From the sequence record MK327941.1: a stretch of 64,000 bases of DNA, one strand, 5' to 3'. Below the pieces are notes generated by a model. It searched no databases, was not told the DNA's origin, and saw nothing but the letters and a program-made list of their open reading frames with translations. The translations under genes were made by a program, and so were the position numbers. The DNA comes from Escherichia phage vB_EcoM_G37-3. This document shows, piece by piece, positions 10,168 through 60,418 of the stretch (positions are counted from its first letter, which is position 1; the number at the start of each line of letters is the position of its first letter).

Positions 10168-10176
10168 TAAACGAAA

Positions 10177-10201
10177 GGCGGGGATTATCCCCGCCTTTTT
10201 A
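10177..10201 (+). terminator. rho-independent terminator after gene 54 (bidirectional)
   Basis: GGCGGGGATTATCCCCGCC followed by TTTTTA. Confidence 0.65.
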
Positions 10202-10711
10202 TTTGATTAAATCATCACATTGTTTGCGTAGTTTATAGCGATACTGTTTTGATTGTAGCAATTGAAGTTTTTCATAATCCCCTTCCTCATATGCAGCCGA
10301 AAGATCATCTTGATATGCTGCTTCCGTCCCGATTACACATACTCCAAATTTTCTACGACGGTCGGCATCTTCCATTGCTTTGCGATTCATTTCTTCAATT
10401 GAATTTTCATGACCATAATAATATTCGTAAATGCGTTTCTTCTCTGCTTCTTTATCTGCCTTAATCTTTGCGATCTGTTCTGCTGATTCCGGTTGACGAC
10501 CTAAACGCTGTAATGAGGCGTCTTTCTTTTCAAGGTAGTCAATCACGCAATCTTCAACGCTATTAAATGGAAAACGTGACTCTTTCTGCCATCGTTCACA
10601 TGACCGTACAAACTCGTGTGTATTCTTAGATGCAAGTGCCAGATCATGCACAGCGCACCCATTAAGCATAGCCACTAAAGCCGCAAGACCAATCAGTTTA
10701 ATCATTTTCAT
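10199..10711 (-). CDS. putative lipoprotein (170 aa)
   Basis: signal peptide with lipobox LNGC (MKMIKLIGLAALVAMLNGC). Confidence 0.6.
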   Translation of the reverse strand: MKMIKLIGLAALVAMLNGCAVHDLALASKNTHEFVRSCERWQKESRFPFNSVEDCVIDYLEKKDASLQRLGRQPESAEQIAKIKADKEAEKKRIYEYYYGHENSIEEMNRKAMEDADRRRKFGVCVIGTEAAYQDDLSAAYEEGDYEKLQLLQSKQYRYKLRKQCDDLIK

Positions 10712-11532
10712 TTAGTCACCTCACCGAAAATTGTAAATTGTCTACGATTCTCATCGCCGAAAGATTCTACTACGTCGTTTACCTTGACGCAAGTCCCGCG
10801 CGGTAAAATTACTTCACATTCGCAAGGGTTCCATGCAATTGACCCAACAACAAAACCTTTATGATCTTTTACGTCAATTACCCATGATACATTACAAGAA
10901 TGTTGCATCTTTCCGGTCATTGATTCATATCGATTCTCACAATAAAGGCTAGTGCTGTTTGATAGCCATCCTCCAAAGATGATTGGTGTCATGCTGGTAG
11001 ATACAAAGTTTTTAAAGGTAAACTCCTTATCTTCAATGATACGCTCTATTGTCTGAATGTCAAGATGTTGACCGCGATAAAGAGTACCGTTTAACTTTTC
11101 GGTTTTATCCATGACGCAATCCATCAAATCGACAATCTCTGATATCTCATCGGTCATGTCTTCTTCCCCTAAGAGAGCACCATTTACCCATTCGTATTGT
11201 TCAGACACATAATCACAGATTGCATTATATTCTGCTGGGGTTATGTTGTTATGTTTGTAATGTTTGAATACATTATCTCCAAAGTCTTCGGAGTGTACTT
11301 CATACATCACATTAATGATTTTCTTGACAAATCCATAATCTTGTGTCTCACGCTCAAGGAAGCGGATAACCTTCACATAATCATCAAAGTTAATCTGATC
11401 GCTAATCATCTCAGTGATCATGTAACCATTAATCCCCTCAATGTCATATGTTTCAATATAATTGTCCATACGTTCCATCATTGATTCGCGTGATTCTTCC
11501 GAAAGACGAAAATCCTGTAATTTCTTGAACAT
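10708..11532 (-). CDS. ADP-ribosyltransferase, Alt/Mod-like (274 aa)
   Basis: R-S-E motifs: LYRG, FVSTS, CECEVILPRG; paralogous to C-terminus of Alt. Confidence 0.7.
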   Translation of the reverse strand: MFKKLQDFRLSEESRESMMERMDNYIETYDIEGINGYMITEMISDQINFDDYVKVIRFLERETQDYGFVKKIINVMYEVHSEDFGDNVFKHYKHNNITPAEYNAICDYVSEQYEWVNGALLGEEDMTDEISEIVDLMDCVMDKTEKLNGTLYRGQHLDIQTIERIIEDKEFTFKNFVSTSMTPIIFGGWLSNSTSLYCENRYESMTGKMQHSCNVSWVIDVKDHKGFVVGSIAWNPCECEVILPRGTCVKVNDVVESFGDENRRQFTIFGEVTK

Positions 11533-14867: not shown

Positions 14868-15580
14868 AGATCCTTATTGGCTTCAAATACTGCCTTTGCG
14901 AATCCTCGCGGGGTAAGTGACCTTATAGTCTTTGTTTTCGTTCCTTTCCCGCCTAGCTTAGAATGCTGTTTACTGTACCCTTTATTAATCTGCAAAGGTT
15001 TCTTTTCTGGCATCATAAAGCCTTGTCCGGTCCATAAGCAAGTCTTTTTCGGGTACATATCACGGGCGGCAATATACTCAGGAAACGTAGGATGCTTATC
15101 ATCTTCCGGCAAATAACCGCCATATTCCCACGGATGAAACATATAATCAGGCTTACGCCACATGCTAGAGATAACGCTTACAGGATTCTCTATCATGTAG
15201 GGAACTCCTAGCCATTCACCCAAATAAGCGGTTATTTTAGCTGCCCGTACATCATGAACTTGAATCAATGGTCCTTGTTCTCGTTTCTTTCGTTCAAAGT
15301 GCGCAGCGCCACTAACAGCTAAATTGGTGCACGGTGGGAATGCAAAGATAATATCCGGTTTCCCCCATTCAAGGTCCATTGCTCTTTCCAGCCAGTTCAA
15401 ATCAATCCATGTGTTTACATAGGTAATGTTTGGATGTTCAAATCTGGTATTATACTTTTTGTATGTGCCGTGGTCGCCATCATCAGCATTAAAGCAGATC
15501 ACCTTATGACCTGCTTTAGCCCATTCTAGCCCCATTATCCCCGATCCGTCAAAGTTACAGAATATTAATTTTTGTTTCAT
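14864..15580 (-). CDS. compact C5-cytosine methyltransferase-like protein (238 aa)
   Basis: motif I-like FDGSGIMG, motif IV-like FPPCTNLAVSG (Pro-Cys nucleophile), motif VI-like ENP; no large target-recognition domain. Confidence 0.55.
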   Translation of the reverse strand: MKQKLIFCNFDGSGIMGLEWAKAGHKVICFNADDGDHGTYKKYNTRFEHPNITYVNTWIDLNWLERAMDLEWGKPDIIFAFPPCTNLAVSGAAHFERKKREQGPLIQVHDVRAAKITAYLGEWLGVPYMIENPVSVISSMWRKPDYMFHPWEYGGYLPEDDKHPTFPEYIAARDMYPKKTCLWTGQGFMMPEKKPLQINKGYSKQHSKLGGKGTKTKTIRSLTPRGFAKAVFEANKDL

Positions 15581-15822
15581 ATACGCCCCTTTAATCCAAC
15601 ACAGATTTTAGAAGGTTCTTTGCCGTGCCACATTAAGTAAAGTCCGTTAATGCGGCCTTGTTTTGTATATGATTCTTTTCTGATCTTCTTATAGTGTCGT
15701 GTTTCCTCAGCCGATTGTTTAGAATACCAATCATAAAGGAAGATGAACAAAGGCCACCCATTAGCGGCCTTAATGCAGTTATTCAAAAATTCCTTATTGC
15801 GTTTAATTAATTTTCTTTTCAC
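15577..15822 (-). CDS. hypothetical protein (81 aa)
   Basis: ORF with 4-nt overlaps to both neighbours. Confidence 0.55.
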   Translation of the reverse strand: MKRKLIKRNKEFLNNCIKAANGWPLFIFLYDWYSKQSAEETRHYKKIRKESYTKQGRINGLYLMWHGKEPSKICVGLKGRI

Positions 15823-16070
15823 GCTGCCCCCATTGGTTTGATAGTAACAGAATCTAAAAGACCTTTGTTAGCCAGTTCGCGGCAAGTTTTCAGATCCGCA
15901 ACTTCCCAACCAGCCGCAATCAGGTTATCAATCAGGCTGTTAGCAACTTCTTCGCTCATGAAAGAGCACTGTTTGCCGATGGTGTAGCGTACACGCTGTA
16001 ATTTCAGTTTACGGAAGCCTTTAACGTTCAGGTCTTTAGCGATTTTCTTTGCGGTTTCGATGTTAGCCAT
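15819..16070 (-). CDS. hypothetical protein (83 aa), first gene of operon
   Basis: ORF immediately downstream of promoter cassette. Confidence 0.6.
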   Translation of the reverse strand: MANIETAKKIAKDLNVKGFRKLKLQRVRYTIGKQCSFMSEEVANSLIDNLIAAGWEVADLKTCRELANKGLLDSVTIKPMGAA

Positions 16071-16110
16071 TGTTTGATTCTCCTAAGTGGTATCTCGTCT
16101 TGATGGTTGT

Positions 16111-16139
16111 ATTGTAGGGGAGTTATCCTCCCCTGTCAA
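16111..16139 (-). promoter_or_regulatory. early promoter cassette (PeSL-like)
   Basis: TTGACA-GGGGAGGATAACTCCCC-TACAAT on minus strand. Confidence 0.55.
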
Positions 16140-16153
16140 CACTTTTTATAAAA

Positions 16154-16321
16154 TTATTTGTTAATTTCTGGTGCGTTGCTAGGATAGTAACCTTCTTTAA
16201 CACCCAGATATTTTGCAACCATCCCTACAATCTTCTGTGCTACTACAATGTCAAATTTCAGATAATCTTCGCCGTGGGTTTCAATGATATATGCTTCACA
16301 TGCTGCTTTAGTCTCGAACAT
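16154..16321 (-). CDS. small protein (55 aa), copy 1 of duplicated gene; not in ORF track
   Basis: GGAGAATCAAA-ATG; MFETKAACEAYIIETHGEDYLKFDIVVAQKIVGMVAKYLGVKEGYYPSNAPEINK. Confidence 0.55.
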   Translation of the reverse strand: MFETKAACEAYIIETHGEDYLKFDIVVAQKIVGMVAKYLGVKEGYYPSNAPEINK

Positions 16322-16354
16322 TTTGATTCTCCTATTTCGTTTCGTTATGTGTGT

Positions 16355-16383
16355 ATTATAGGGGATCTCCCGATCCCCGTCAA
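16355..16383 (-). promoter_or_regulatory. early promoter cassette (PeSL-like)
   Basis: TTGACG-GGGATCGGGAGATCCCC-TATAAT. Confidence 0.6.
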
Positions 16384-16397
16384 CAACTTTTTTAAAA

Positions 16398-16679
16398 TTA
16401 TTCGTGATTAGTTTCGATGTTGTGCATTTTGCACCAGTTCAGCCAATCACCCAGATCCTGATAGTTAATGCTTTTATCTGCTGCCATCGTTTTTGTCTTG
16501 ATACCCATATGTGCGTTATGAGTAAGCATTTTTACAGTGAACTCAATTTTATCACCTTTAGCTTTAACATCAACCAGTTTGGTCCACTGGCTACCAGCGC
16601 CGCGAATGTTCATACCAACGATGTTTCCGATGTATGCTTCTTTGTTTTTCAGGATTTCGGTTGCTTTGATGAATTTCAT
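16398..16679 (-). CDS. hypothetical protein (93 aa)
   Basis: ORF with conserved leader and GGAG. Confidence 0.6.
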   Translation of the reverse strand: MKFIKATEILKNKEAYIGNIVGMNIRGAGSQWTKLVDVKAKGDKIEFTVKMLTHNAHMGIKTKTMAADKSINYQDLGDWLNWCKMHNIETNHE

Positions 16680-16749
16680 TTTTGATTCTCCAGTTCGTTT
16701 CGGTATGTGTGTATTATGCTATGTTCTTACTTTGGTGTCAACAACTTTT

Positions 16750-17019
16750 TTAGATATTTTCAGAAATAAATTTTAAAACTTGACGTAAATGTTTCTCATC
16801 TTTGATAGTCGCCGGAAGTTCTTCTTTTACTTCCTGTGCAAGATAGATATTTCCGTTCCAAGTGAAAGATCCGTCTTCGTTTACGCGATAGCTGAACATC
16901 CACTCGCAATCATTTTCGATTTCATATACACACAGAAGGGTGTAATCGTTAAAGCTATTGATTTCAAGGTCGAAGCCGTGACGTTTTGCAAAGTTGGTAG
17001 TGGTTTTAGTCAGAGCCAT
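16750..17019 (-). CDS. hypothetical protein (89 aa)
   Basis: ORF with conserved leader. Confidence 0.6.
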   Translation of the reverse strand: MALTKTTTNFAKRHGFDLEINSFNDYTLLCVYEIENDCEWMFSYRVNEDGSFTWNGNIYLAQEVKEELPATIKDEKHLRQVLKFISENI

Positions 17020-56931: not shown

Positions 56932-57264
56932 TTACAGATGAAAACCTGTTACGATCACCGCATCGATCATACCGCTAGGAATAAACGGTTCGCCCTCTTT
57001 TATTTCAACTTTGAATTGATGCCATTTCGCTAATACTTCTTCCGGTACACCCAGCGATTCGGCGTCTGCTTTAGTTTCATCCATAATCCAACTAGGCTGC
57101 ATGAGAGCATAGTTTACATAGTCCATTTCTTGGGTCATGTCATCAATGTTAATATATTTGCAGTTGACGCGTTTCAGAATTTCAAATTCTTTATTATCAA
57201 CCTGTACCATGTATAATTCAGTAGTTTCTGGAATCAGTTCCCACACAATCAGTACATTTTTCAT
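56932..57264 (-). CDS. hypothetical protein (110 aa)
   Basis: ORF in small-gene block. Confidence 0.55.
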   Translation of the reverse strand: MKNVLIVWELIPETTELYMVQVDNKEFEILKRVNCKYINIDDMTQEMDYVNYALMQPSWIMDETKADAESLGVPEEVLAKWHQFKVEIKEGEPFIPSGMIDAVIVTGFHL

Positions 57265-57272
57265 AGTTCACC

Positions 57273-57641
57273 TCACTTAACAAAGATTTTCTTTAATGCT
57301 TTCAGGATCGTTGCTTCCGGCGCTTCTTCCGGTGGAGGAAGCAATTCTACCACTTCCTCTTCCAACTCGATATAGTCTACCAGATATTCTACATAGAATG
57401 CAAGTGCTTCCATGAAATTAGATGCTACATCCGATTCACCACACGCGCCTACATGCATTGTATAAACATCACTGCGATCAAGTTTGTGAATACTCCCCAG
57501 ATAGTTCCGGTTATACCAGACTTCCCACACTTTCAGCTTTCCGGTTTTGGTTGATGTTTTATAATCGGTTTCGTAATGATGCAATTGACGTTGCAGATCA
57601 TTGATAATAACACATTTTTCGTAATTGTTTTGAATTTCCAT
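57273..57641 (-). CDS. hypothetical protein (122 aa)
   Basis: ORF in small-gene block. Confidence 0.55.
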   Translation of the reverse strand: MEIQNNYEKCVIINDLQRQLHHYETDYKTSTKTGKLKVWEVWYNRNYLGSIHKLDRSDVYTMHVGACGESDVASNFMEALAFYVEYLVDYIELEEEVVELLPPPEEAPEATILKALKKIFVK

Positions 57642-57651
57642 GATGTAATCC

Positions 57652-57843
57652 TCACTTATCGTTAAGAAGTTCTAAAACTTTCTGTCGTACTTTGTCAATA
57701 TTAGTTGATTCAAAAACTGTACGGTATCCCCAGCTTTGACCGTATGAGCGGTTGCAATCTCCATATCCCCATTGTTCAACCTGATAGTATTCAAGGAATG
57801 GATGCTGCCGAACTATGATACCATCGCGATTAAAAATTACCAT
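57652..57843 (-). CDS. hypothetical protein (63 aa)
   Basis: ORF. Confidence 0.5.
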   Translation of the reverse strand: MVIFNRDGIIVRQHPFLEYYQVEQWGYGDCNRSYGQSWGYRTVFESTNIDKVRQKVLELLNDK

Positions 57844-57866
57844 AATATAATCCTCACGTCAACAAC

Positions 57867-58154
57867 TTATTTTCGGTTGTGGTCACGATATGTTTTAAAA
57901 TATCCCTCGTACCACGGTAAAACATCTGGATTTTTACCACTATACAGACCTTTAACCATCATGTCAATAAGACCGTCCGGTGTTTGATAATTACCAGCTT
58001 TTATAAGCTCTCTGATTAAAATTTCCCTGTATATGTCTTTCGGATCTTCGTAATCAACTTGTATCGTGGTTGTAGTCTCATTCAATTTGGTTTCTGGAGT
58101 ATCTTGCATCGCCTTCCACCAATCTTTTGTAATCTTCATGTTATTGAATTGCAT
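57867..58154 (-). CDS. hypothetical protein (95 aa)
   Basis: ORF. Confidence 0.55.
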   Translation of the reverse strand: MQFNNMKITKDWWKAMQDTPETKLNETTTTIQVDYEDPKDIYREILIRELIKAGNYQTPDGLIDMMVKGLYSGKNPDVLPWYEGYFKTYRDHNRK

Positions 58155-58165
58155 AATTTAACCTC

Positions 58166-58924
58166 TTACTTGCAAACGTATTGATCTACATCAATTGCGC
58201 CACCGAATGTAGGATGACGTTTTTCGAATCGAATAGTTCCGTCGTTTGGTTCGAAAACGGAGTATTCATATAGATCTTTCTTGCCAACATTCTTATAAAA
58301 CCCGCCTTTAGTCATAACGGTTTCTTGTACGTTTGCTTTGTGTACGTTGTATTCATCAATGTATACAAAATCAACCATCTTCCCATTTTTAATTGTTACT
58401 TTAAGATCTCCTGGTTGGTTTCCATATTTTGCATACAGTGGCGCTTCTTTAATTTTTGTGGAAATTCCATCTTTCATACTCCACTCATAACGAACGGTGC
58501 ATTGATAGGTAAAAGTTTCGACCTTCGGTTCTTCCACCACTTTTTCTTCCTGTTTCGGTTGTTCTTCTTCAACCTTCGCAGAAGTCTCTGAATCGCTTTC
58601 TGACGCGGTTTCTTCTTTAGGTAATACATTCATCAAGTTTTGGATTTGAGCGTTGTATACAGCCTCCAGTGGCTGAATCTGCCCGATATTGATCATTGTA
58701 TCACGAACAGTTTTATTCCAGTTTCGTTGCTCTTGTTTCAGAGACGGATCAATCTTAACAGCCTTAACATACACCTCATGAAGTTTAGAGTCCAGTGCGG
58801 AGATAGACTCATTAGCACAAATAAACTTCTCTGATTTGGTAGTAGCTTTAGCGCAATCGAAGGACGCAGCGTTAGCACCGAAAGCAGTAGCAGAAAGAAC
58901 GATAGCAGCGATAATGTTTTTCAT
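58166..58924 (-). CDS. secreted protein with LprI / DUF1311-like N-terminal domain (252 aa)
   Basis: signal peptide MKNIIAAIVLSATAFGANA; CAKATTKSEKFIC...LDSKL...Y pattern. Confidence 0.6.
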   Translation of the reverse strand: MKNIIAAIVLSATAFGANAASFDCAKATTKSEKFICANESISALDSKLHEVYVKAVKIDPSLKQEQRNWNKTVRDTMINIGQIQPLEAVYNAQIQNLMNVLPKEETASESDSETSAKVEEEQPKQEEKVVEEPKVETFTYQCTVRYEWSMKDGISTKIKEAPLYAKYGNQPGDLKVTIKNGKMVDFVYIDEYNVHKANVQETVMTKGGFYKNVGKKDLYEYSVFEPNDGTIRFEKRHPTFGGAIDVDQYVCK

Positions 58925-58958
58925 AATATATTCCTCAGTGTTTTGTCTTGATGTGAGT

Positions 58959-58987
58959 ATGTTACTACTCCCTTAATCCGGTGTCAA
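58959..58987 (-). promoter_or_regulatory. early promoter cassette (PeSL-like)
   Basis: TTGACA, 17-nt spacer, TAACAT within GGGAGTAGTAACATACTCAC. Confidence 0.5.
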
Positions 58988-58994
58988 CTACTTT

Positions 58995-59150
58995 TTAAAT
59001 TTCTTCTACAGTAAAGTCTTCAATGTTGTTGTGCTCGGAGAACGTTGCCAGACCAGCATTCCATGCATCATCCTCAGAGAAGAATACGCCGTAACGTTCA
59101 TATCCTTTAGAGCCTTCAAATTTAACCATTAATTTGTGAGTATGTTTCAT
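58995..59150 (-). CDS. small protein (51 aa)
   Basis: true start MKHTHK with AAGGAG; the track ORF N-terminus MLTGDRRSPI is translated promoter sequence. Confidence 0.5.
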   Translation of the reverse strand: MKHTHKLMVKFEGSKGYERYGVFFSEDDAWNAGLATFSEHNNIEDFTVEEI

Positions 59151-59181
59151 TTTGATTCTCCTTCGTTGTCTTGACGAGTTT

Positions 59182-59210
59182 AGTATAGGGGATCGGCGAT
59201 CCCCTGTCAA
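59182..59210 (-). promoter_or_regulatory. early promoter cassette (PeSL-like, palindromic spacer)
   Basis: TTGACA-GGGGATCGCCGATCCCC-TATACT. Confidence 0.6.
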
Positions 59211-59220
59211 CAACTATTTT

Positions 59221-59433
59221 TTAATTTTTACCCGCTCGTGCATTAATACGCATTTTCTGCATAGCCATGATCTGGCTTACTGCTTCTTCTTTACGTTCTT
59301 GCGTGATAACGTGACCAGATTCCGCAAACTCTCCAGCAACTTCTTCTACGATCTCGCGAACTTGAGAACGTCCAAAGATGCGGTTTCCTTCGTAGCTCAT
59401 AAATTCAGTCACTACTTGCTCAATAGATTTCAT
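59221..59433 (-). CDS. hypothetical protein (70 aa)
   Basis: start MKSIEQ with AAGGAG. Confidence 0.55.
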   Translation of the reverse strand: MKSIEQVVTEFMSYEGNRIFGRSQVREIVEEVAGEFAESGHVITQERKEEAVSQIMAMQKMRINARAGKN

Positions 59434-59462
59434 GTGATTCTCCTTTCGTTTGGTATGGGAGT

Positions 59463-59491
59463 ATAATACTACTCCCATTATTCAGTGTCAA
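59463..59491 (-). promoter_or_regulatory. early promoter cassette (PeSL-like)
   Basis: TTGACA, 17-nt spacer, TATTAT within GGGAGTAGTATTATACTCCC. Confidence 0.55.
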
Positions 59492-59497
59492 TAGATT

Positions 59498-59704
59498 TTA
59501 TTCGATTATTTCAAATTTTGCTACCGGATCACCGTTTCGTTTGGTTGCAGTAAGTTGTTGTTTGTCAAAGTAAAACCAAATATAGTCACCATGAACTACA
59601 TCAAATGTGTTTCCGCTATTGTCCGTGAATACATCAACATCATAATCACACCCGACACCAAAGCTATAATTGATGTGATCGGTTTCAATGCAACGTACTT
59701 TCAT
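59498..59704 (-). CDS. hypothetical protein (68 aa); paralog of 30448..30666
   Basis: shared VAKFE C-terminus. Confidence 0.55.
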   Translation of the reverse strand: MKVRCIETDHINYSFGVGCDYDVDVFTDNSGNTFDVVHGDYIWFYFDKQQLTATKRNGDPVAKFEIIE

Positions 59705-59775
59705 TTTTTGAATCTCCTTTTTGTTTCACTGTGTGTATTATGCAATGCTGGATTATGGAAGTCAAACAACTTTTC

Positions 59776-59803
59776 AAATAAAAAAGCCGACCACAAGGAT
59801 CGG
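59776..59803 (-). terminator. rho-independent terminator
   Basis: AGCCGA-TCCTTGTGG-TCGGCT then TTTTTTATTT on minus strand. Confidence 0.5.
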
Positions 59804-59815
59804 CTTAATAATCAG

Positions 59816-60211
59816 TTACTTACTAAATTTCTTTTTGGCTTCGTCTACTGCATGAGATGCCAGTACCGCCGCCGCATGTGCACTTTTATCTGTGTTGCAG
59901 AGAACACCCAGATAAACATCACGCCAAAGTTTAATCATCTCGTAGATCATATCAATATCATTTTCTTGTTTGTTGGCGATGCTATTCGTCGTTATCTGGT
60001 AAGGTAACGGCTTGATCTGTACTGGTTCCGTCATCGGGCTAATCGGTTTCGGATCAGTCATAATAGGTGCTGTTGTGGGTGGTGTTTTCCATACGCCATT
60101 ATTCCACGGTTTAATCGTTGTGTCGTAAAGTTTATAAGGATTTTTGTCTTGGTCAACCATCCATGCATGATGAGTACCCAAACCATTTGAAGTGATGCGT
60201 CGTTCAGTCAT
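59816..60211 (-). CDS. hypothetical protein (131 aa)
   Basis: ORF. Confidence 0.55.
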   Translation of the reverse strand: MTERRITSNGLGTHHAWMVDQDKNPYKLYDTTIKPWNNGVWKTPPTTAPIMTDPKPISPMTEPVQIKPLPYQITTNSIANKQENDIDMIYEMIKLWRDVYLGVLCNTDKSAHAAAVLASHAVDEAKKKFSK

Positions 60212-60214
60212 AAT

Positions 60215-60418
60215 TTATTTCCTCTCTGAAAATTCTTTCATCAAGCTGTCGATCTTTGCTCTGTGTTCTGGCGTGTTTGTCATCTCTGCTAATTTGCTCA
60301 GAGATTCACTGGTGATCCGGTTGGATTCTTCCAGTGTTTCAACGACAATTGGAACAATCTTTTTATTGTTGTACAGAAATGCAATATAACCGCCTTCTGG
60401 ATATTCTTTCATAATCAA
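60215..60418 (-). CDS. hypothetical protein (67 aa)
   Basis: ORF coupled to gene 52. Confidence 0.5.
   Translation of the reverse strand: MIMKEYPEGGYIAFLYNNKKIVPIVVETLEESNRITSESLSKLAEMTNTPEHRAKIDSLMKEFSERK

Follow-up and report, generated by a model that had tools for sequence, protein, structure and literature searches.

The lysozyme inhibitor LprI of Mycobacterium tuberculosis (Rv1541c) is composed of a DUF1311 domain (PF07007) followed by an MliC domain (PF09864), and its lysozyme inhibition has been attributed to the C-terminal MliC domain. The Neisseria lysozyme inhibitor ACP is a disulfide-clamped eight-stranded barrel devoid of MliC motifs (PMC5507604). In phage T4, superinfection exclusion is due in part to the early periplasmic protein Spackle, an inhibitor of the gp5 tail lysozyme (PMC7677548). 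ScwA of Salmonella, a periplasmic DUF1311 protein, does not protect against lysozyme but raises the level of MltD, and its overproduction causes lysis (PMC7933661). DUF1311 is also listed among immunity-associated domains (PMC12135965): the DUF1311 immunity protein Etsi4 rescues Etse4 toxicity in EHEC (PMC12981562), Psi15, a DUF1311 protein of Pantoea, is paired with the pesticin-domain effector Pse15 (bioRxiv 10.64898/2026.08.01.741415), and orphan immunity genes with DUF1311/LprI domains are found in Pantoea (PMC9796082).

Here, we analysed a window of 64,000 nucleotides, taken from Escherichia phage vB_EcoM_G37-3 (MK327941.1), a Krischvirus coliphage (RB49-like, T4-type). It carries a gene, ORF260, whose product resembles each of these systems in part. 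Like LprI, ORF260 combines export features with a DUF1311 head followed by a small barrel of the MliC/PliC fold class. On the other hand, LprI is a lipoprotein whereas the ORF260 leader is of the signal-peptidase-I type, and the ORF260 barrel lacks the MliC sequence signature, is larger (~118 aa), is polymorphic and is separated from the head by a long acidic linker. The barrel resembles that of ACP in the placement of Cys residues in the first and last strands and in the absence of MliC/PliC motifs from both. Similarly to Spackle (gp61.3, PF25676), ORF260 is an early, predicted Sec-exported soluble protein whose proposed target class is the gp5 tail lysozyme, but the two are unrelated in sequence and fold, Spackle being a highly conserved, non-polymorphic single-domain protein of 97 aa. 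ScwA is a soluble periplasmic DUF1311 protein, as ORF260 is predicted to be, and it has two DsbA-dependent disulfides; it differs in being a helical 275-aa protein with a C-terminal DUF1311. The DUF1311 immunity proteins of T6SS share with ORF260 the signal peptide and DUF1311 and act in the periplasm against peptidoglycan-targeting toxins. However, their genes adjoin effector genes in T6SS islands, whereas ORF260 is found among phage early genes or at the end of a prophage and carries the polymorphic barrel in addition. No cognate gene for a periplasm-acting effector was found beside ORF260, its neighbours being small early ORFs or the prophage end and hicAB.

ORF260 gave no Pfam match to Spackle, and the best hits for Spackle in RB49 or the window had E-values of 0.049 (tblastn, inside gene 41) and 0.4 (HMM). 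Marfavirus phages encode a true Spackle (Pfam E 1.7e-28) together with a protein made of a signal peptide, DUF1311 and a further tail; thus the two kinds of proteins are not simple substitutes. With a probability of about 0.4, we tentatively regard ORF260 as an early periplasmic inhibitor of incoming peptidoglycan hydrolases, acting in superinfection exclusion or immunity.

Gene, export signal and domain organization of ORF260

The features of the gene and of its product are as follows.

58166..58924, minus strand: ORF260, ATG-started ORF of 252 aa, predicted exported two-domain protein
58959..58987, minus strand: sigma-70/T4-early-type promoter TTGACA-17-TAACAT, a consensus match only, with an A-rich stretch before it
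58932..58936, minus strand: Shine-Dalgarno GAGGA, 7 nt before the ATG, read from the sequence
58868..58924, minus strand: Sec signal peptide, residues 1-19, cleavage predicted from rule-based features between ANA and AS
58631..58855, minus strand: DUF1311/LprI_N helical head, residues 24-98, containing the Cys24-Cys36 pair
58529..58615, minus strand: acidic/Lys-rich linker, residues 104-132, disordered (AlphaFold2 pLDDT <50)
58169..58522, minus strand: polymorphic C-terminal beta-barrel, residues 135-252, with Cys142 in the first strand and Cys251 in the last

ORF260 is identical in protein sequence (100%) to RB49 ORF260c, annotated as 'hypothetical protein', and matches phrog_14799, which has no function assigned there, with an E-value of 1.8e-156. 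NCBIfam gave no match to ORF260, PADLOC none to ORF260 or to the product of a second gene considered below (10199..10711), and our literature search found no publication on the phage protein itself. Over 57000..60400, the window shares 92-98% identity with 58 phage records. The gene is surrounded by small early ORFs, between the topoisomerase gene 52 and the holin gene t, in a setting of the hyperplastic type reported for RB49 and Phi1, where early-promoter (PeSL) motifs recur (PMC2839356). The promoter match is positioned 35 nt upstream of the gene, and no late promoter TATAAATA was found on the strand of ORF260 in a search of the whole window. Both ORF260 and 10199..10711 belong to early-orientation transcription units.

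A cleavable signal peptide had been proposed for ORF260, and the features of the leader bear this out. Its sequence, MKNIIAAIVLSATAFGANA followed by ASFDC, has one Lys in the n-region, a hydrophobic core of 10 residues with a mean Kyte-Doolittle value of 2.54, and A-N-A at positions -3 to -1 of the predicted cleavage site. The leader is kept in all homologues, and residues 1-20 are modelled by AlphaFold2 with a pLDDT <50. ORF260 has no lipobox, there being no Cys in or directly after the leader and the cleavage site being of the ANA/AS type. Two Cys pairs, 24/36 and 142/251, are invariant in the homologues, as is expected of a periplasmic, DsbA-oxidised protein. From the sequence, we infer that ORF260 is exported into the periplasm, where Cys24-Cys36 and Cys142-Cys251 would form disulfides.

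The LprI/DUF1311-like pattern noted at the N-terminus in the original prediction corresponds to a genuine domain. PF07007 matches residues 24-76 with 26 bits (E 1.3e-5), above the curated gathering cut-off of 22 bits, and this match recurs in 16/16 family members and in 3 distant phage homologues. The motif C..KA....E..IC......LD..L...Y ... QR.W, with its Cys pair, is present and invariant in three alignments, and the predicted fold of the head is a small helical bundle as in PDB 3gi7. This assignment is not new, since the RB49 protein is named 'Lysozyme inhibitor LprI-like N-terminal domain-containing protein' in UniProt and the E. coli copies 'lysozyme inhibitor LprI family protein' in RefSeq. 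The functional part of the designation 'LprI lysozyme-inhibitor domain' is another matter, inhibition by LprI being attributed to its MliC domain instead. Indeed, PF07007 carries its LprI-derived label without direct evidence of lysozyme inhibition for that domain itself, and the label 'lysozyme inhibitor LprI' should not be taken as evidence of PF07007 function.

Residues 135-252 form a confident all-beta domain in the AlphaFold2 model (pLDDT ~88-92), in which strand 135-151 holds Cys142 and strand 244-251 holds Cys251, two residues that are invariant in all alleles. The model of the most divergent barrel type, that of an E. coli prophage allele, gave again a helix-linker-barrel arrangement with Cys residues in the first and last strands. 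Since two very different alleles are modelled alike, the barrel types are diverged versions of one fold and not unrelated domains. The C-terminal barrel did not figure in the original prediction; nor did the constant head with its hypervariable tail or the sharing with prophages.

Comparisons of the barrel with known structures point to a fold class and not to a family. Foldseek searches of the PDB returned no match at E <=0.001 and only weak matches of the same fold class. The modelled likeness to the lysozyme inhibitors Brucella PliC, ACP and PhiA holds at the level of the fold only and is non-specific, outer-membrane barrels, lipocalins/FABPs and designed barrels scoring similarly. Pfam gave no match for the barrel in any of the 16 members, with MliC absent at E up to 1, and hhalign of the barrel profile against E. 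coli MliC, a query checked by Pfam (E 6.7e-18) and in the PDB, gave a probability of 0.5%. A sequence search of the PDB with the barrel found no match; the barrel profile found there only weak matches to unrelated proteins (a PhoU-like protein and karilysin), which we take as chance. Among 1.84 billion representative proteins, the profile detected no relatives outside its own family, three repetitive proteins being judged spurious. In the homologue search, the full-length query yielded 20 proteins, the barrel alignment one fragment and the head alone none, both of these outcomes being taken as a limit of the tool. The lysozyme-recognition motifs of MliC/PliC (SxSGxxY and the TKG-type loop) are absent from the barrel; a 'TKGG' occurs in the window allele and is not kept in the other barrel types.

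Divergence and distribution of the head and the barrel

Comparison of 40 sequences from phages, prophages and metagenomes revealed that residues 1 to ~130 are 96-100% identical, whereas the barrel exists in at least 10 sequence types with 12-50% identity between types, among which only Cys142, Gly153 and Cys251 are invariant. At the nucleotide level, the window and the phages Phi1, AV108, JSE and E26 are at least 92% identical on both flanks of a divergence island that extends from ~58540 to ~57880, with 35-68% identity over most of its span. The recombination boundary is located at the end of the linker, where identity falls from >=92% to <=68% at ~58540; the linker itself varies in length through EEKQP-type repeats. 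The island covers the linker end, the barrel and then the downstream gene ORF259, two conserved stretches of which account for patches of 73-83% identity.

57867..58154, minus strand: ORF259, 95 aa, without signal peptide, downstream of ORF260 and inside the same divergence island

As its head is constant and its tail variable, and as the next gene diverges too, ORF260 might be read as a polymorphic toxin with a constant N-terminus and a toxic C-terminus, for which ORF259 would be the immunity protein. We consider this extremely improbable and have rejected it, since barrel types A and B2 are accompanied by one and the same ORF259 allele. Furthermore, the divergence of ORF259 is not proportional to that of the barrel, and the prophage copies are followed by a terminator instead of a downstream ORF. 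Nor does ORF260 carry a domain for delivery: its only targeting feature is a Sec leader, which leads into the periplasm of the producing cell, and its C-terminal part is a predicted small disulfide-clamped barrel with no recognised catalytic domain.

Substitution rates estimated by the Nei-Gojobori method differ markedly between the two domains. Between alleles, the head shows dN of 0-0.02 and dS of 0.08-0.28, that is a dN/dS of ~0.03-0.1, which indicates strong purifying selection and not merely recent transfer. Between barrel types, dN reaches 0.35-1.06 and dS is >1.4 or undefined; synonymous sites are saturated there, so that a test for positive selection between types is uninformative. Within barrel types, dN/dS is 0.24-0.34, which corresponds to relaxed purifying selection, with no overall signal of positive selection. 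As judged from these sequences, the barrels are ancient allelic lineages recombined onto one head rather than the product of a recent burst of positive selection.

The ORF260 gene is present in all ~58 Krischvirus records found, with barrel type A in ~45, C1 in 12 and D1 in JSE. Of 5,426 complete E. coli genomes, 26 have a chromosomal gene that matches its first 381-408 nt at 94-96% identity and in which the same head is joined to other barrel types. This E. coli copy stands last among the genes of a prophage that has integrated at hicB and adjoins hicAB; it is self-contained, with its own AT-rich upstream region and a terminator, and its homology to the phage gene begins exactly at the ATG. 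In IMG/VR, the gene lies at the end of a prophage-like contig of 24-36 kb in 9 of the 11 loci. Barrel types cross between the two kinds of phages: type D is found in both JSE and prophages, and subtype B2 is carried by a 150-kb T4-like contig while subtype B1 occurs in prophages. That E. coli prophages carry this module too means gene flow between virulent and temperate phages. This sharing between virulent and temperate coliphages appears to be undescribed, as does the LprI-like arrangement of two domains in which the barrel is polymorphic and recombines.

These data bear also on whether ORF260 is a dispensable ORFan of the hyperplastic region, shuffled by recombination of promoter cassettes. 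The location is suggestive, as regions of small early ORFs and repeated promoter motifs commonly undergo insertions, deletions and replacements. Such a gene would hardly be found in every Krischvirus genome recovered, maintained independently in prophages and constrained to a head dN/dS of ~0.03-0.1 at dS up to 0.28 and to 0.24-0.34 within barrel types, which makes this explanation very unlikely.

Beyond close relatives, the head is combined with many other tails. Distant phage proteins have a signal peptide and DUF1311 head 37-49% identical to that of ORF260 and unrelated tails (Klebsiella Marfavirus, 248 aa; Aeromonas CC2, 239 aa; lambdoid ev099, 232 aa), and 74 proteobacterial proteins carry the same 'AASFDC' head with many unrelated tails of 0-500 residues, mostly without a Pfam family. 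Such a distribution would suit a barrel that acts as an effector unrelated to lysozymes, blocking entry in an Llp-, Cor- or Imm-like manner through a variable component of the envelope or the phage, with the head as a generic scaffold or anchor. The ejected tail or tape-measure protein and the periplasmic face of the receptor are candidate targets. Frequency-dependent selection exerted by diverse competitors would fit a barrel polymorphism whose dS is saturated, and the fold class, which includes lipocalin-, NHBA- and fHbp-like binders, is a general scaffold for binding ligands and proteins. However, no specific target can be named, the strong purifying selection on the head is left unexplained, and DUF1311 has links to muramidases that do not involve the tail. 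We consider this alternative possible, though rather doubtful.

The lipoprotein candidate encoded by 10199..10711

A second gene of the window had been singled out in the original prediction for its lipobox.

10199..10711, minus strand: candidate outer-membrane lipoprotein of 170 aa, last gene of an alt-like operon
10655..10666, minus strand: lipobox L-N-G-C, residues 16-19, with Ala at +2
10168..10195, minus strand: strong intrinsic terminator GGCGGGGATAATCCCCGCC plus T-run, directly after the lipoprotein gene, read from the sequence

The protein begins with MKMIKLIGLAALVAMLNGC, and the ATGA start of its gene overlaps the stop of an upstream gene for an Alt-like ADP-ribosyltransferase (Pfam ADPrib_exo_Tox, E 4.3e-16). 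Taken alone, the LNGC of the window allele fails strict lipobox patterns (PROSITE PS51257, DOLOP) because of Asn at -2, the pattern used being [LVI][ASTVI][GAS]C at the end of the signal peptide. The positional alleles of RB49 and Whisky, on the other hand, have a canonical LTGC, and the leader, Cys19 and four further Cys are invariant among alleles whose mature parts are only 29-48% identical. According to the established +2 rule, Ala at this position predicts sorting to the outer membrane. From its sequence, the product is plausibly an outer-membrane lipoprotein.

The protein matches phrog_16112, which has no function assigned there, and its only match in NCBIfam is far below the cut-off. 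The gene is confined to Krischvirus (58 records) and hypervariable across the genus, the window allele being 100% identical to that of E26/PHB13 and 30% to that of RB49. Most simply, its product is a further envelope protein of the same early programme, hypervariable independently of ORF260. We examined its likeness to Llp of T5 and Cor of phi80: it is likewise a candidate early phage lipoprotein with conserved Cys pairs, predicted to face the periplasm from the outer membrane, but it is larger (152-aa mature form) and no sequence similarity to them was found. By analogy, it could possibly mask or modify an envelope component, resulting in receptor masking or exclusion. RB49 has been reported to use OmpA. 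A spanin reading was rejected on inspection of the sequence, the protein being too long for an o-spanin and devoid of a u-spanin-like C-terminal transmembrane segment.

A possible role of ORF260 against incoming peptidoglycan hydrolases

The reading that coheres best is one of superinfection exclusion or of defence against enzymes that degrade the wall. The binding partners and phenotype of ORF260 we infer as follows. The gene would be transcribed from its own early-type promoter and the product exported through Sec as a soluble protein of ~26.6 kDa, consisting of a four-helix DUF1311 head (Cys24-Cys36), a flexible acidic linker of ~30 residues and a barrel clamped by Cys142-Cys251. In the periplasm, it would bind and neutralise peptidoglycan-cleaving enzymes that enter from outside. 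The main candidates are tail-spike lysozymes brought in by superinfecting phages, the kind of target that T4 Spackle has, and T6SS or bacteriocin muramidases are possible as well. The invariant head might recognise an invariant target, with the polymorphic barrel taking on variable ones. Infected cells would gain protection in this way during the virulent cycle, and lysogens through the prophage copy.

The only lysozyme domain of Krischvirus is the Phage_lysozyme domain of gp5 (RB49), and the candidate endolysin of RB49 is a Peptidase_M15_4; therefore, a broad muramidase inhibitor would leave lysis by the phage itself unimpeded. Across Krischvirus, the lysozyme domain of gp5 shows 98.7-100% identity whatever the barrel type, and is thus as invariant as the DUF1311 head. 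Co-variation of the barrel with the phage's own gp5 was also considered and rejected, gp5 being invariant.

The inhibitor reading is supported by the links of DUF1311 to peptidoglycan hydrolases, through LprI and the T6SS immunity partners, and by the PliC/ACP/PhiA-like fold of the barrel. Further points in its favour are the early-type promoter and orientation, the failure to find Spackle, the occurrence of the gene in all Krischvirus genomes and as a self-contained terminal gene in prophages, and the selection pattern of the two domains. Against it stand the absence of a sequence link between the barrel and MliC, the non-specific fold matches of the barrel, the coexistence of Spackle with a DUF1311 protein in Marfavirus, the lack of co-variation between barrel type and gp5, the negative PADLOC and NCBIfam searches and the counter-example of ScwA. 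ScwA suggests in particular that ORF260 could modulate host peptidoglycan enzymes and thereby wall turnover, lysis timing or lysis inhibition, since ScwA is itself a periplasmic DUF1311 protein with two disulfides that alters the level of a lytic transglycosylase and provokes lysis when overproduced. A conserved host target would fit the strong purifying selection on the head. On the other hand, the architecture of ScwA is different, with DUF1311 at its C-terminus, and a housekeeping target explains neither the ancient polymorphism of the barrel nor the terminal moron position in prophages. Such a host-directed function is unlikely.

Inhibition of incoming hydrolases can be extended to a more daring proposal, which we hold to be decidedly doubtful: ORF260 and its prophage relatives might form a polymorphic periplasmic exclusion locus, with cassette-swapped barrels on a constant head, at which the barrel allele decides which competing phages or injected wall-degrading toxins are neutralised and alleles are swapped between virulent T4-type phages and temperate prophages.

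Superinfection exclusion in T4-type phages is mechanistically understood for very few proteins (Spackle, Imm). In Krischvirus, where Spackle is not detectable, ORF260 is a universal, early, predicted-exported candidate with a plausible muramidase-inhibitor architecture, and its constant head with swappable barrel offers a natural allele series for phage-panel tests. RB49-like phages (Phi1, JSE) have been studied or isolated for therapy, so that a link to the design of phage cocktails is conceivable, and it would be of practical relevance if lysogens carrying ORF260-type genes resist some phages. If the proposal of an exclusion locus is true, phages would possess an equivalent of the polymorphic arrays of immunity genes, as well as a second answer, unrelated in structure, to the task of T4 Spackle.

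DUF1311 heads in phages and bacteria

When the full-length sequence of ORF260, the exported protein that joins a DUF1311/LprI_N head to a polymorphic C-terminal barrel, was used as the query, the homologue search returned 20 relatives, whereas almost none came back for the head by itself or for an alignment of the barrel. These near-empty results reflect the sensitivity limit of the search and are not a biological result. In bacterial genomes (loci L028-L107), a widespread N-terminal module combines a signal peptide with an 'AASFDC' DUF1311 head; the tails fused to it are very diverse and mostly devoid of annotation, in proteins of 115-1447 aa. Among the tails, four are DUF3298 and one consists of ankyrin repeats, and some loci (L029, L032, L033 and L079) carry two such genes. 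In Klebsiella phage PhiKpNIH-6, one early region, around the primase gene 61, contains both a Spackle and an SP-DUF1311-X gene at a distance of 2 kb from each other:

L014 140..421, true Spackle gene
L014 2501..3247, SP-DUF1311-X gene, 248 aa

Surroundings of ORF260

The divergence island holding the ORF260 barrel also contains its downstream neighbour, ORF259, which is devoid of a signal peptide.

57867..58154, minus strand, ORF259, 95 aa, phrog_15915 (function unknown)
59182..59210, minus strand, promoter-plus-stem-loop element TTGACA-GGGGATCGCCGATCCCC-TATACT, preceding ORF 58995..59213

The ORF259 allele of the window shares 45-51% identity with those of Phi1, JSE and E26, and a core ELI(K/R)AGNYQTP.GLID.MV is conserved among the alleles, which do not track the barrel type. 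The element at 59182..59210 is a textbook PeSL, the early-promoter and stem-loop motif described for RB49 (PMC2839356); unlike it, the ORF260 promoter has the hexamers but lacks the G/C stem-loop. On the same minus strand, ORF 58995..59213 is absent from AV108 (stretch 59020..59260), and ORF 59498..59704 shows just 50-60% nucleotide identity to Phi1, AV108 and JSE (stretch 59500..59800). These differences look like cassette-type insertions, deletions or replacements between early promoters, as in the descriptions of PeSL.

Lysis enzymes, Alt-like genes and allele matches

Beyond the window, in RB49 (L013 4719..5108 and 15150..16952), the protein annotated as 'putative endolysin' is a Peptidase_M15_4 and not a lysozyme, and the sole Phage_lysozyme domain found is that of gp5, with 98.7-100% identity across all Krischvirus genomes.

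Two Alt-like ADP-ribosyltransferase genes are arranged in tandem beside the gene of the candidate outer-membrane lipoprotein (10199..10711, minus strand), and the shorter one is translationally coupled to that gene through an ATGA overlap:

10708..11532, minus strand, Alt-like ADP-ribosyltransferase gene, 274 aa
11611..13662, minus strand, Alt-like ADP-ribosyltransferase gene, 683 aa

The ORF260 allele of the window is that of RB49 (100%), whereas its lipoprotein allele is that of E26 and PHB13 (100%), with only ~30% identity to the RB49 allele. Judged from these allele matches, the window is a mosaic.
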